DNA from: an uncultured Candidatus Saccharibacteria bacterium
GTDB lineage: Bacteria; Patescibacteriota; Saccharimonadia; Saccharimonadales; JAGQNJ01
NCBI GenBank assembly: GCA_964426845.1
Contig: CAYRSA010000001.1
Location: 107,237 to 171,236 of the forward strand
Direction of reading: 5' to 3'
DNA length: 64,000 nucleotides
A program made the position numbers and the translations under genes. Positions 17,019 through 21,289 of this stretch are shown piece after piece. The stretch's first letter is position 1, and each line of letters starts with the position of its first letter. A model generated the notes under the pieces. The model was not told the origin of the DNA and made no database searches. It saw only the letters and a list, made by a program, of their open reading frames with translations.

Positions 17019-18335
17019 GTGAGTAGCAAAACTAAAGTACCGATCATAGCTATTGTCGGCCGGGCCAATGTGGGCAAGTCCAGTCTTTTTAATAATGTTC
17101 TAGGCCGGCGCGAGACCATCGTGGCCGACGAACCTGGCACCACCCGTGACAGTATTTACGGTCGGGCTCATTGGGAAGGCTATGACTTCTGGGTTGTTGA
17201 CACCGCTGGCATGAAAGACCCCAAAGACGACTTTGAATTTACAATTCAAGAACAAATTAGCCAAGCCACCGAAAGCGCCGATATCATCTGGGTGGTCATC
17301 GAAGCTGATGTCGGTATTACCGATGACGACCGTCGCTTGGCTAAGCAAGCCCTCAAGAGCAAAAAGCCGGTCTTCTTAGTAGTCAACAAAGCTGACAAAG
17401 CCTATAAGGCCACCGAGGCCGATTACCAGCGACTAGGCGTCAAAGACATCTTTATGACCTCAGCCACCCAAAACCGGGGCATTCCGGCTATGTTGGATGA
17501 GCTGGTCAACCTCATACCTAAAACCGCCATTCCTGTCGATCAAGATCGTATCACTATCGCGCTCCTGGGCCGCCCCAATGTTGGCAAATCTTATCTGTTT
17601 AACACCTTGGCTAAGAAACAACAGGCCATCGTGGCCGATCGGGCTGGCACCACCCGTGACATTAACCGCTTGACCGTCCGTCACAAGCAAAAAGAGATCG
17701 AGATCCTGGACACCGCCGGTATCCGCCGCAGCGGCAAGATCGAGCGGGGCATCGAGAAGTTCAGCGTTATTAGGTCATTATCAGCCATCGAGCAAGCCGA
17801 TGTCTGCTTACTACTAATGGACGCTAACGAGCTCAACGTGGCCCTGGACCAAAAAATCGCCGGCATGATCAAAGAGGCTGGCAAGGGCCTGATCCTAGTA
17901 GTCAGCAAGTGGGACTCGGTCGACAAAGATGCCTACACCCGAGATAGCCTAGCTCCTAGCATCCAGCGCGAATTCATCTTCGTTCCCTGGGCACCACTGA
18001 TATTTACTAGCTCGGTCACTGGCCAAAACGTCACCAAGTTGTTTGATCTGGCTCAGGACATCGTCAACGCTCGCTCAACACTGATTAAAACACCTGTTCT
18101 AAACCGCTGGCTTCACCAGATTACTGACGAGCACCCGCCGGCCGGACTCAAAAATAAAACACCGAAATTAAATTACATGATTCAAGAGGGCGACAACCCG
18201 ACCAACTTCAAAGTCTATGGCAAAGACACCAAGTTCCTGCATTGGAGTTACAAAAGGTTTATGGAGCGACGCCTTAGAGAAGAATTTGGCTTCGAAGGTA
18301 CGCCAGTCCGTTTCTGGTTCTTCGACAAAAAATAA
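17019..18335 (+). CDS. der: Ribosome-associated GTPase Der (EngA)
   Basis: Two tandem G domains (GRANVGKSSLFN and GRPNVGKSYLFN, each followed by DTAG and NKxD-type motifs) precede a KH-like C-terminus. The start is GTG. Confidence 0.95.
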   Translation: MSSKTKVPIIAIVGRANVGKSSLFNNVLGRRETIVADEPGTTRDSIYGRAHWEGYDFWVVDTAGMKDPKDDFEFTIQEQISQATESADIIWVVIEADVGITDDDRRLAKQALKSKKPVFLVVNKADKAYKATEADYQRLGVKDIFMTSATQNRGIPAMLDELVNLIPKTAIPVDQDRITIALLGRPNVGKSYLFNTLAKKQQAIVADRAGTTRDINRLTVRHKQKEIEILDTAGIRRSGKIERGIEKFSVIRSLSAIEQADVCLLLMDANELNVALDQKIAGMIKEAGKGLILVVSKWDSVDKDAYTRDSLAPSIQREFIFVPWAPLIFTSSVTGQNVTKLFDLAQDIVNARSTLIKTPVLNRWLHQITDEHPPAGLKNKTPKLNYMIQEGDNPTNFKVYGKDTKFLHWSYKRFMERRLREEFGFEGTPVRFWFFDKK

Positions 18336-18351
18336 GTATACCAAGACCCTT

Positions 18352-18696
18352 ATGGCCACAACCCCCGAACTACCACCCCCAACATCCCTGTCCGAAGCCC
18401 AGAGCGCCTTTGATGCCGACAACAACGATACGGCTTGGCAACAATATGGCCAATGTCGTCAAGAGGGTATTAATCCCCGTATATTTGAAGGCAGTACCCC
18501 TGGCGACATTGTCCGCGCGCGACAGGCCTGCGGTGCTTGTGCTGTCCAGACCTTATGTTTAGACTTTGGCATCGCTCATGGCAATTCTTTTACTATGTGG
18601 GGTGGACACACCCCTGACGAGATCCGGGCAATACGTCGCGAACAACGCCAAAGCAAGTTATCGTGGTTGAGGGCCTTCCTGAACCTCGACGAATAA
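18352..18696 (+). CDS. WhiB-like (Wbl) 4Fe-4S transcription factor homolog
   Basis: The Cys pattern is C-x24-C-x2-C-x5-C (QCRQEG...ARQACGACAVQTLCLDF), followed by TMWGGHTPDEIRAIRRE. I moved the start to ATG 18352 because the track ORF start at 18217 lies inside der. Confidence 0.7.
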   Translation: MATTPELPPPTSLSEAQSAFDADNNDTAWQQYGQCRQEGINPRIFEGSTPGDIVRARQACGACAVQTLCLDFGIAHGNSFTMWGGHTPDEIRAIRREQRQSKLSWLRAFLNLDE

Positions 18697-19371: not shown

Positions 19372-19962
19372 TTAGTCGTCAAGCTTAATGACCCTAAGCC
19401 CAAGTGACTTGCGTCGGTCTTTAATCTCACGAACCAGTCCCTCTTCCTTCAGGTACGCCCGCTGAACAGTATCGCCGATATAGCCAAACACTTCTACGAA
19501 ACGCTTATAACTAGCAGCACTGTCGTTTGACGAGTGATGGGCTCTTCTGATCTCGTATTTTAACTTATCGTACTCGACAGCCACATGGCAACCCAAGCTA
19601 TAGAGCGGCCCGATATCAGACCCGTGGATTGTTATGACGCGGTTCTTTGCACCAAAACTACCAATATGCGCAATGCAGTCCTGTGTAGGGACTATAGTTC
19701 CATAACCCAACTCTACCTCGTCGTGCAATAAAACCCCTGGACCAACAGTGACATTTCCTTCAAGCTGCCGCCCATTGGAAGATACCGACCGCACATCATT
19801 TGGGCAAACCACAGCACCCTGCATTAAGAGAACTCCTCCATCAATATAAACGTTCGGACCAACAACAACCCCTGCCTCAATTACGCCCGGTTCATGCACT
19901 GATGCTCGCGGAGATATAATAGCTGATTCGTCGATTCGAAGGTTGGCTTCTGGATTAGTCAT
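19372..19962 (-). CDS. Hypothetical protein with an N-terminal hexapeptide-repeat (left-handed beta-helix-like) region
   Basis: 196-aa ORF with lower GC than its neighbours. It has repetitive V/I-G-x motifs (GVIEAGVVVGPNVYIDGGVLLMQGAVV). There is no SD, and a promoter-like element abuts the ATG. Confidence 0.55.
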   Translation of the reverse strand: MTNPEANLRIDESAIISPRASVHEPGVIEAGVVVGPNVYIDGGVLLMQGAVVCPNDVRSVSSNGRQLEGNVTVGPGVLLHDEVELGYGTIVPTQDCIAHIGSFGAKNRVITIHGSDIGPLYSLGCHVAVEYDKLKYEIRRAHHSSNDSAASYKRFVEVFGYIGDTVQRAYLKEEGLVREIKDRRKSLGLRVIKLDD

Positions 19963-19970
19963 TTTCTAAA

Positions 19971-19998
19971 ATCTTAATACCTATATTATTCTTGTCAA
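19971..19998 (-). promoter_or_regulatory. Sigma70-type promoter placed for a leaderless transcript of the 19372-19962 gene
   Basis: The minus strand reads TTGACA (19998-19993), a 16-nt spacer, TAAGAT (19976-19971), then 8 nt and the ATG at 19962. Confidence 0.45.
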
Positions 19999-20009
19999 CT
20001 CACCCTAGC

Positions 20010-20046
20010 GTAAAAGACCTCCAGAGGGGGTGGGCACCGCTGGAGG
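20010..20046 (-). terminator. Hairpin plus T-run, candidate intrinsic terminator of the non-coding locus
   Basis: The minus strand reads CCTCCAG-(15-nt loop)-CTGGAGG followed by TCTTTTA. The loop also pairs with an upstream 8-mer (see findings). Confidence 0.45.
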
Positions 20047-20366
20047 CCTATTACACCCTTCAACCCACCCCAGCGAAACTTGCGGAGAACTCCACAAAGT
20101 AAACTCCGTGTCTGATCCCAAGGGATCAATCGTTTAGACTCGCTTTGAATTGGGGCCTCAAGTGCGTTTGCGAACATCCGCGCAAGAGGTTGCTAGTTAA
20201 AGGGGTTAGTCTGTTTTAGAGCGTTTCCCCAAGGGGAAGCGCTTACTTAGTGGAGGGTAACAACTATGAAAGCCGCTCTAAAACAACCTAACTTCATCAC
20301 TATTTAATAAGTGATAGTTAGAATTGGGGTATAAGGTACGATGAATTCTTTGTTAGAACTCACAGG
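20010..20366 (-). ncRNA. Candidate ~350-nt structured RNA of unassigned class
   Basis: It is bounded by a consensus promoter and a terminator-like hairpin, contains several strong stems and a pseudoknot-type complementarity, and has no credible ORF. Confidence 0.5.
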
Positions 20367-20371
20367 TTGCC

Positions 20372-20400
20372 ATTTTAGCAAAATGCTTACCTTATGTCAA
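20372..20400 (-). promoter_or_regulatory. Near-consensus sigma70-type promoter driving the non-coding locus
   Basis: The minus strand reads TTGACA (20400-20395), a 17-nt spacer, then TAAAAT (20377-20372). Confidence 0.6.
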
Positions 20401-20434
20401 TACTAAAATACAAGTTTGGAGTTAGAGCAAAATA

Positions 20435-21289
20435 GTGCAGAAACCAAAGCATAAGCAAATTCCAGTTCCGCCTCTGTTAAGCCAATTGCCCGATGCGCCC
20501 AAGCTGCTTTTTGCCATCGGCAATAACCTCGAGGAATTGCTAGCCAAACCGCGGGTCGCCATTGTCGGCGCGCGTAAGATGTCACCATATGGTCAAGCTG
20601 TTACCGAGAAGCTGGCCGCTCAGCTGGCAGGCAAGGGGATAGTGGTAGTTAGTGGTCTAGCTTACGGTGTAGACGTTTGCGCCCACCAGGCAGCTCTGGC
20701 AGTCGGAGGGCAGGGTATTGCCGTCATGGCTTGTGGCTTGGATCATATTTACCCCACGGCTCATACCCGGATAGGGGAGGAGCTAGTCCAAAAGGGCGGG
20801 GTTATTCTGTCAGAGTACCCTGAAAGAACCACGCCCATGCAATACCGCTTCCTAGAACGCAATCGCCTGATTTCTGCCCTATCTGATGCGGTAATCATAA
20901 CCGAGGCCGCTCAGCGCAGTGGCACCCTCAACACTGCTGCCCATGCCTTAAACCAGGGTAAGCCTGTGCTCTGTGTCCCTGGAGACATCACGAGTGAACT
21001 ATCGGCTGGTACCAACAACCTACTAAAGGCTGGGGCCACCCCCGTGACATCGGTGGACGACGTACTTTCACTGCTAGGCATAGATGAGGAGATCCAAACC
21101 GCCTTACCGCTAGCCGCCAACGAGAATGAGTTCATTCTGCTTAGTTTGATTAAGGACGGCACCAGTAACGGCTCTGATCTCCTTAGACAGAGTGAATTAG
21201 ATGCTCCAACCTTCAACCAAACCCTCACCATGCTGGAGATTACCCGCAAGATAAAACCGCTCGGCGCCAATCATTGGACCTTGGCTTAG
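20435..21289 (+). CDS. dprA: DNA processing protein DprA (Smf)
   Basis: PRVAIVGARKMSPYGQAVTEKLAAQLAGKGIVVVSGLAYGVDVCAHQAAL is the typical DprA Rossmann core. The start is GTG. Confidence 0.9.
   Translation: MQKPKHKQIPVPPLLSQLPDAPKLLFAIGNNLEELLAKPRVAIVGARKMSPYGQAVTEKLAAQLAGKGIVVVSGLAYGVDVCAHQAALAVGGQGIAVMACGLDHIYPTAHTRIGEELVQKGGVILSEYPERTTPMQYRFLERNRLISALSDAVIITEAAQRSGTLNTAAHALNQGKPVLCVPGDITSELSAGTNNLLKAGATPVTSVDDVLSLLGIDEEIQTALPLAANENEFILLSLIKDGTSNGSDLLRQSELDAPTFNQTLTMLEITRKIKPLGANHWTLA

Follow-up and report, generated by a model that had tools for sequence, protein, structure and literature searches.

A probable new family of pseudoknotted structured RNAs encoded beside dprA throughout Saccharibacteria

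Few widespread classes of bacterial RNA with complex folds remain without a function, and each offers a lead to unknown biochemistry. The 6C, RsaE/RoxS and RNAIII RNAs carry C-rich loops able to pair with G-rich or Shine–Dalgarno sequences. In Bacillota and Actinomycetota, the raiA-motif (ModT) RNA is an abundant, trans-acting molecule of unknown function that contains two pseudoknots, lies near comFC and binds KhpA/KhpB (PMC10861870, PMC12968392); the closing stem P1, formed from its 5' and 3' ends, is conserved (PMC12968392). In the Candidate Phyla Radiation (CPR), diverged RNase P RNAs retain a conserved core (P4/CR-I/CR-V) (PMC8172020). For the phylum of the Saccharibacteria, Weinberg 2017 lists lysM-TM7 only. 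We have analysed a 64-kb stretch of DNA from an uncultured Candidatus Saccharibacteria bacterium (contig CAYRSA010000001.1; hereafter the window, in whose own numbering all coordinates are given), in which the spacer upstream of dprA appears to encode a structured RNA on the minus strand.

Comparison of related loci makes it highly probable that positions 20365-20012 of the minus strand specify a structured RNA that stands alone and belongs to a new family, which is not in Rfam 15 and occurs throughout Saccharibacteria (class Saccharimonadia). The locus has the marks of a non-coding RNA gene: its own promoter, its own terminator, a covarying structure and no conserved open reading frame (ORF). 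A first-pass annotation of the window had proposed a discrete promoter-to-terminator structured RNA of unassigned class on this strand. Promoter, terminator, conservation and covariation all support that proposal, and among the identities then offered, a new RNA class is the one favoured by conservation and covariation across the family together with the lack of any Rfam 15 match. Scanned against Rfam 15, the locus gave no significant match. At gathering thresholds the whole window yielded a tRNA-Glu alone; at E <= 10, both strands of 19900-20500 gave scattered chance matches only, and no family; and at E <= 5, 12 homologous loci gave chance matches (miRNA, CRISPR-DR57, PyrR and others), none of which recurred. 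ARAGORN reported nothing at the locus, and full-text literature searches found no description of the RNA family. Current annotation pipelines leave the spacer blank in every genome examined.

DprA was used as an anchor, and 27 Saccharibacteria species-representative loci were fetched. The DprA proteins of these loci are just 39-55% identical to that of the window, yet nucleotide similarity to the window persists in the spacer upstream of dprA (best nhmmer E, 2e-34). The element was found 5' of dprA in all 25 of the species-representative loci with enough flank; a profile built from the first 14 sequences detected it in every locus with upstream sequence, always on the strand opposite to dprA. 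In the window, a profile hidden Markov model found one copy (19992-20435, minus strand, E = 9e-95). Aligned among relatives, the dprA-upstream spacers are conserved and covarying, with invariant blocks separated by variable hairpins, and the conservation sets in at the promoter/-35 and ends at the U tract, matching the predicted transcript boundaries.

A metagenome scan with a degenerate pattern taken from two 3' blocks added at least 120 further contigs. Among the matches listed, the collected set holds 141 loci with the 3' block and 97 with the complete upstream region (94 unique); single loci are cited below by their L numbers. Each of these 97 full-length copies among the matches listed has exactly one TTGAC[A/T]-N16-18-TAnAAT promoter, TTGAC[A/T] having been a requirement of the search, and their predicted transcripts are 231-461 nt long, with compact members at ~250 nt. 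A subset referred to as group 2 (Nanosyncoccus-like) consists of L012, L018-L027, L094 and L122. When viral contigs were scanned with the family pattern there were 0 matches.

Covariation in the 5' domain was assessed on 36 sequences (alignment A1), with shuffled and slid controls. The score was 0.615 as compared with 0.217 in shuffles; none of 500 shuffles reached 0.615, and slid controls gave at most 0.163. For the 5' domain as a whole, 92.7% was paired, against 70.9% in shuffles. Because covariation is far above both kinds of control, we regard the structure as real and not a product of chance. The RNA strand has a minimum free energy (MFE) of -128.5 kcal/mol, as compared with -98.9 +/- 5.8 in shuffles (z = -5.1). 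The opposite strand folds comparably (z = -4.6), and the strand cannot be assigned from folding energy alone. Many G.U pairs in the RNA strand are A.C mismatches on the other strand, and the window's match to a covariance model of the 5' domain, at 20196-20365 (113.7 bits, E = 9e-24), is confined to the minus strand; for these two reasons the promoter strand is favoured. The same model matched the divergent members L059 and L070 at E ~1e-3, and group 2 at E 0.04-0.45, at the expected position.

The spacer is bordered by a hexapeptide-transferase ORF (19372..19962, minus strand) and by dprA (20435..21289, plus strand), whose product matches Pfam DNA_processg_A (E = 3e-70). The signals that would delimit the transcript are as follows.

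20395..20400, minus strand: -35 hexamer TTGACA, from the promoter scan; near-invariant in motif-independent MAFFT alignments
20372..20380, minus strand: extended -10 element TGCTAAAAT, with TG at 20380-20379 and TAAAAT at 20377-20372
20012..20365, minus strand: predicted transcript of ~354 nt, its 5' end placed from the -10 (to ~3 nt) and its 3' end at the U tract
20016..20048, minus strand: terminator hairpin GGCCUCCAG/CUGGAGGUC, from the repeat search; the stem covaries
20012..20015, minus strand: U tract UUUU after the terminator stem, read from the sequence; 4-6 T in relatives

The promoter (TTGACA-17 nt-TAAAAT, 20400..20372, minus strand) scored 11/12 in the promoter scan and is near-consensus, as the first-pass annotation had it; it is of the sigma-70 type and has a TG ahead of the -10. 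Across the family, in alignments and collected loci alike, TGnTAnAAT is placed 16-18 nt past the -35. The hairpin and T tract that had been noticed ~350 nt past the promoter lie at 20048-20012. The terminator loop measures 15 nt (CGGUGCCCACCCCCU) and holds, at 20034-20027, the 3' strand CCCACCCC of a proposed second pseudoknot (PK2, below). A terminator scanner made no call at hairpin 20048-20016, probably because its loop limit of 3-8 nt is exceeded by the 15 nt found here.

The 5' domain comprises three helices (P1, P2 and P3) and C-rich single-stranded blocks.

20343..20361, minus strand: P1, hairpin GAGUUCU...AGAAUUC of the MFE fold; two-sided changes in 5/5 pairs among the 36 sequences
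20326..20340, minus strand: B1, single-stranded block CGUACCUUAUACCCC; near-invariant in group 1 and unpaired in the consensus fold
20288..20323, minus strand: P2, UUCUAAC (20323-20317) with GUUAG (20292-20288); 96.7% of cells paired
20274..20284, minus strand: P3 5' strand GUUUUAGAGCG, from the repeat search and covariation
20213..20223, minus strand: P3 3' strand CGCUCUAAAAC, from the repeat search and covariation
20250..20260, minus strand: B3, C-rich apical loop UUACCCUCCAC, which holds an anti-Shine–Dalgarno-like CCUCC
20220..20243, minus strand: variable side hairpin AGCGCUUCCCCUUGGGGAAACGCU, from the repeat search; differs in both sequence and length among relatives

P3 is the helix that was first seen as an 11-bp long-range pairing of 20213-20223 with 20274-20284. 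It is conserved: all 12 of 12 pairs show two-sided changes, 95.6% of cells are paired, and the 11-bp helix extends to 19 nt at 89%. The proposal that P3 and the local hairpin at 20220-20243 exclude each other fails, since they overlap by just 4 nt and both are present in the MFE fold; a switch between the two was rejected on the same ground. The B3 loop at the apex of P3 has a mean predicted unpaired probability of 0.92, as compared with 0.36 for the whole RNA. Its TACCCTCC is invariant in 36/36 aligned sequences, with UUACCUCCAC as the group 2 counterpart, and the loop is C-rich even in L016 and L059, the most divergent members. The single strand that follows P1, GCACCUUAUACCCCC, is likewise invariant, and the core of B1, GCACCU(U/A)A, is retained in group 2. 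A triple helix of the C-rich single strand with the first pseudoknot, PK1, was considered and rejected: group 2 is without the C run.

In group 1b (e.g. L111, L132, L042 and L017), P1 is capped by a conserved C-UGCGA-G loop, and a similar CUGCG...CGAG element occurs again inside the hairpin past the 5' strand of PK1. A hairpin inserted within P2 differs in length among relatives. The GUUAG of P2 (20292-20288) has two conserved and mutually exclusive partners, UCUAAC (20317-20322) and ACUAAC (20205-20210); pairing with the latter would lengthen P3 and stack on PK1. L005 is without the first partner and L011 weakens the second, while group 2 has both of the equivalent helices side by side, with different sequences. 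The dual partners could reflect a conformational switch or helix stacking on PK1.

Covariation of the 3' elements was assessed on 44 sequences (alignment A2).

20196..20204, minus strand: B4, PK1 5' strand CCCUUUAAC, pairing with 20064-20056
20056..20064, minus strand: B6, PK1 3' strand GUUGAAGGG, pairing with 20204-20196
20072..20195, minus strand: variable middle domain, with hairpins UGAUCCC/GGGAUCA (20128-20113) and CGGAG/CUCCG (20108-20082)
20064..20071, minus strand: proposed PK2 5' strand GGGGUGGG, from the repeat search; an 8-nt match to the loop at 20027-20034

PK1 is paired in 100% of cells in 44/44 sequences, with U-A changed to C-G in 10 and G.U alternating with A-U; in L016 it reads CUCCUUAAC/GUUAAGGAG, with two further compensatory changes. 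The terminator stem shows two-sided changes in 8/10 pairs. The smaller stems and repeats of the first-pass annotation were all recovered by repeat search or MFE fold, among them the hairpin TGATCCC/GGGATCA (20113-20128), the CGGAG/CTCCG stem and, by repeat search, the twice-occurring CCCCAATTC. In relatives the middle domain ranges from a small hairpin of ~50 nt to a multi-stem domain of ~155 nt. The larger ones (e.g. L030, L032, L068, L123 and L144) have the motif ..ACUAUACAGUAGUGA..UCAGGCGCG..GACGCUUCAC.., which looks like a candidate loop-E/S-turn element and recalls the E-loop that raiA has in its optional P8.

PK2 would join GGUGGG to the CCCACC of the terminator loop and is plausible but unproven. 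GGUGGG is found between B4 and the terminator loop in 89/93 members; L079 and L107 carry it twice, once beside the PK1 3' strand and once in the loop of the hairpin following the PK1 5' strand. The core of the terminator loop, TGCCCACCC, is conserved in the 26 DprA-anchored sequences, independently of any motif search; it was required by the searches behind the later sets, which means that its constancy in the 44 aligned rows carries no independent weight. The reverse complement of this loop resembles the T-box GGGUGGNACCGC, a reading that was rejected because it lies on the wrong strand, matches no T-box model and has no aminoacyl-tRNA synthetase gene nearby. The sequence GUUUUAGAGC resembles the start of a Cas9 repeat; this reading was likewise rejected, since the sequence forms one side of a helix whose covariation has produced unrelated sequences in relatives.

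Relatives carry extra sequence at fixed sites only, namely in the P2 loop, at the tip of P3, past the 5' strand of PK1, within the middle domain and ahead of the terminator. Such confinement is typically seen in RNAs whose three-dimensional core is constrained. In L001 (3300-3640, minus strand), an insertion of ~330 nt directly after the PK1 5' strand is bounded by a 16-bp inverted repeat (CCCGCACCTTTTAGCG/CGCTAAAAGGTGCGGG) and contains an ORF of 82 amino acids with a GIY-YIG nuclease domain (PF01541, E = 2.6e-17); the ORF seems to be of a mobile or homing type, accommodated in a stem of the RNA gene that tolerates insertion. L016 (3630-3900) and L059 (5861-5978) are very divergent, yet they keep PK1, the terminator loop and the C-rich P3 tip. 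That tip is UUUCCCCUAA in L016 and CCCCUUCCCC in L059, both without the CCUCC loop, and L059 is also without the GCACCU block. The divergence of these two members implies that the family is broader than the search pattern could sample.

In nearly every locus with enough flank, dprA lies divergently and directly beyond the RNA promoter, and this adjacency was kept even after the group 2 rearrangement that moved topA and pth. The RNA occurs without a detectable DprA alongside in L042, L064, L111, L142 and L070. On the downstream side, most loci have pth in convergent orientation; in group 2 the downstream gene is topA, on the same strand and 24-200 nt past the RNA. The hexapeptide-transferase gene is downstream of the RNA in the window and in no other locus. 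It has its own promoter past the RNA terminator (TTGACA-16-TAAGAT, 19998..19971, minus strand), from which its mRNA is probably leaderless, the ATG lying ~8 nt after the -10. At 20403-20434 of the window (plus strand), dprA starts ~35 nt from the -35 of the RNA gene, with GGAG 13 nt ahead of its GTG start. The promoter scan detected no canonical sigma-70 promoter for dprA in the spacer, and the dprA and RNA units must share or compete for ~60 bp.

Could the conservation arise from something other than an independent RNA? The gap was said to contain nothing but an implausible ORF of 60 amino acids, which is indeed its sole ORF (19995..20177, minus strand) and is ATG-initiated. A small protein gene at this position has practically no chance of explaining the conservation and is refuted on several counts: the frame is stopped in 71/94 homologues, the spacing of two invariant blocks falls into every class modulo 3, the longest open stretch shifts strand and frame among homologues, and the ORF reads through the terminator and has no Pfam match. 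A role as cis-regulatory leader of the gene past the terminator, whether as riboswitch, T-box or attenuator, would be suggested by a terminator hairpin whose loop is able to pair upstream, which resembles an expression platform, and by the same-strand genes that follow, topA in group 2 and the hexapeptide-transferase gene in the window. Gene context refutes it, and we judge it extremely unlikely: the next gene is convergent pth in most loci, the hexapeptide-transferase gene has a promoter to itself past the terminator and adjoins the RNA nowhere else, and no riboswitch or T-box family of Rfam 15 matched the locus or the 12 homologues. The idea of a riboswitch-like leader, which the first-pass annotation had offered, is therefore rejected. 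Another reading is local action on dprA, whereby the RNA promoter would occlude or time dprA transcription or the RNA would regulate competence. The strong promoter stands back to back with the divergent dprA start, the adjacency is nearly constant, and dprA has no canonical sigma-70 promoter of its own that could be detected in the spacer. Promoter interference, however, would not need a covarying, pseudoknotted RNA of 250-450 nt, and a few loci carry the RNA without a detectable adjoining DprA. Gene order is highly conserved across Saccharibacteria, and the adjacency may be inherited and not functional. Moreover, dprA is no fitness gene in Southlakia transposon sequencing (PMC10633639). We consider local action unlikely.

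The other rivals place the RNA in a known family. A highly diverged RNase P RNA, transfer-messenger RNA (tmRNA), signal recognition particle (SRP) RNA or 6S RNA would fit the size, the strong promoter, the ubiquity and the conserved core with variable periphery, which resemble those of housekeeping RNAs, and CPR bacteria have been reported with diverged RNase P RNAs missed at default thresholds (PMC8172020). Lowered thresholds, however, allowed RF00010 to find RNase P RNA in circular CPR genomes, including two Saccharimonadia (PMC8172020), whereas here RF00010 and RF00011 gave no match at E <= 10 (locus) or E <= 5 (12 homologues). Hallmark sequences of RNase P, tmRNA and SRP, which the first-pass annotation had sought on both strands and not found, are absent from all 94 family members: on the RNA strand, RNase P CR-I GGAAAGUCC (GGAAAGTCC in DNA) and CR-V ACAGAA..CGGCUUA occur in 0/94; the tmRNA (RF00023) T-arm GGUUCGA occurs in 0/94, with no conserved tag ORF in the variable region; and the SRP domain IV motif GGAAGCAG (a GGAA tetraloop hairpin) occurs in 0/94, with no Rfam match. 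Pairing of the 5' and 3' ends is not above chance (duplex -7.8 kcal/mol, as compared with -8.8 in shuffles). With its ends unpaired, the RNA has no acceptor stem, RNase P P1, 6S rod or raiA P1; a 6S rod is also at odds with the multi-domain pseudoknotted fold and finds no Rfam match. A divergent known RNA, another identity proposed at first, is thus not supported; a universal RNA in disguise is largely refuted and very unlikely.

A further rival would make the RNA very distant kin, or a functional equivalent, of the raiA-motif RNA. Both are independent transcripts with two pseudoknots, the second here a proposed one, and abundance is reported for raiA (PMC10861870, PMC12968392). In both, one domain takes the form of a small hairpin or of a multi-stem insertion, and a competence gene adjoins each, comFC there and dprA here. 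Saccharibacteria live on Actinomycetota, and the window has a WhiB-type gene: a WhiB-family transcription factor gene lies at 18217-18696 (plus strand; PF02467, E = 3e-11). WhiB proteins are characteristic of Actinomycetota, the group on which cultivated Saccharibacteria live. Against kinship, RF03072 gave no match at E <= 10 (window) or E <= 5 (12 homologues); a closing P1 helix is missing, the 5' end being a local hairpin and the 3' end a terminator; the linker UUAGACGUAA occurs within 1 mismatch in 0/94 sequences; and the order of helices differs, in a comparison made through Rfam and published feature descriptions. In raiA, a pseudoknot joins the apical loop of P3b to a linker downstream; here the P3 apical loop finds a complement in the 3' strand of PK1, which is already engaged in that helix. 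We regard such kinship as improbable.

How, then, might a stand-alone RNA of this kind work? Transcription would start from its own near-consensus sigma-70 extended -10 promoter and stop at the intrinsic terminator, and the consensus promoter with the A-rich region upstream of it would point to high constitutive expression. The RNA would fold in the order P1, invariant strand, P2, P3 with its C-rich tip, PK1, variable middle domain and PK2, and would presumably act in trans as an abundant, stable and compact molecule. Its pseudoknotted core would be a scaffold and would also shield the 3' end; that this core is compact in three dimensions is suggested by insertions confined to fixed sites, one of them tolerating the 82-residue GIY-YIG ORF. 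The invariant C-rich single strands may form the working surface that captures a G-rich partner, for which Shine–Dalgarno-like GGAGG sequences, or a single-strand RNA-binding protein, e.g. with a KH domain, are candidates. That C-rich strands on a scaffold are presented to a G-rich partner is our best guess, though at well under even odds. The RNA could instead form a raiA-like ribonucleoprotein, be a ribozyme, or have a role linked to dprA by the back-to-back promoters.

Several points weigh against this picture. Both ends of the transcript are inferred from sequence only. Because a sequence pattern served in part to collect the family, the metagenome set exaggerates how invariant the patterned blocks are. 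Instead of binding a partner, the C-rich blocks could make tertiary contacts within the RNA, and the C-rich P3 apical loop has complementarity to GGGU in the 3' strand of PK1, a segment already in that covarying helix. A search of the 64-kb window for trans targets of the two C-rich blocks found nothing above background, and a general role in trans leaves the tight link with dprA unexplained. PK2 shows no covariation in the 44 sequences, its loop being invariant, and in group 2 GGUGGG sits elsewhere, in the loop of the hairpin following the PK1 5' strand. Of the pseudoknot first proposed for the terminator loop, the 8-nt complementarity, the conserved loop and the widespread GGUGGG stand, whereas covariation is lacking and the partner has moved in group 2.

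At roughly 0.7-1 Mb, the genomes of Saccharibacteria leave little room for dispensable DNA. That such tiny genomes everywhere keep a gene of 250-450 nt with a strong promoter and dozens of invariant nucleotides makes it very likely that the RNA is important to them. We put at about even the chance that it represents an undescribed RNA class, a single-copy core component of Saccharibacteria on a par with raiA or OLE, working as a ribonucleoprotein or ribozyme with a new biochemical role. That it lies beside dprA almost universally may hint at a part in DNA uptake or recombination of these epibionts. Saccharibacteria are genetically tractable via natural transformation (PMC10633639), which opens the RNA to deletion, mutation and pull-down. 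An annotation gap is closed by the family as well, and it is a possible lineage marker.

Set beside the described systems, the RNA resembles the CPR RNase P RNAs in lineage, in a length of 300-400 nt, in its variable periphery and in having been missed by default annotation; it differs from them in that it is without the P4/CR-I/CR-V core and is not matched by RF00010. With 6C RNA (RF01066), RsaE/RoxS and the RNAIII hairpins it shares exposed, conserved C-rich strands, here UACCCUCC and ACCCCC. In contrast to those RNAs it matches no Rfam family and has no target found in the window, and it is 3-5 times larger, with long-range helices, pseudoknots and covariation of the scaffold type. Like OLE, ROOL and GOLLD it is lineage-restricted and highly structured, with pseudoknots and a function not deducible from sequence; unlike them it has no Rfam match and no phage association (0 viral-contig matches), and it is smaller (231-461 nt), single-copy and fixed in chromosomal context. 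The closest analogue is raiA/ModT (RF03072), also a stand-alone RNA, of 160-250+ nt, with many invariant nucleotides and, as is predicted here too, high expression. The Saccharibacteria RNA differs from raiA in that it ends in a terminator whose loop seems to join the fold, and in being restricted to Saccharibacteria.

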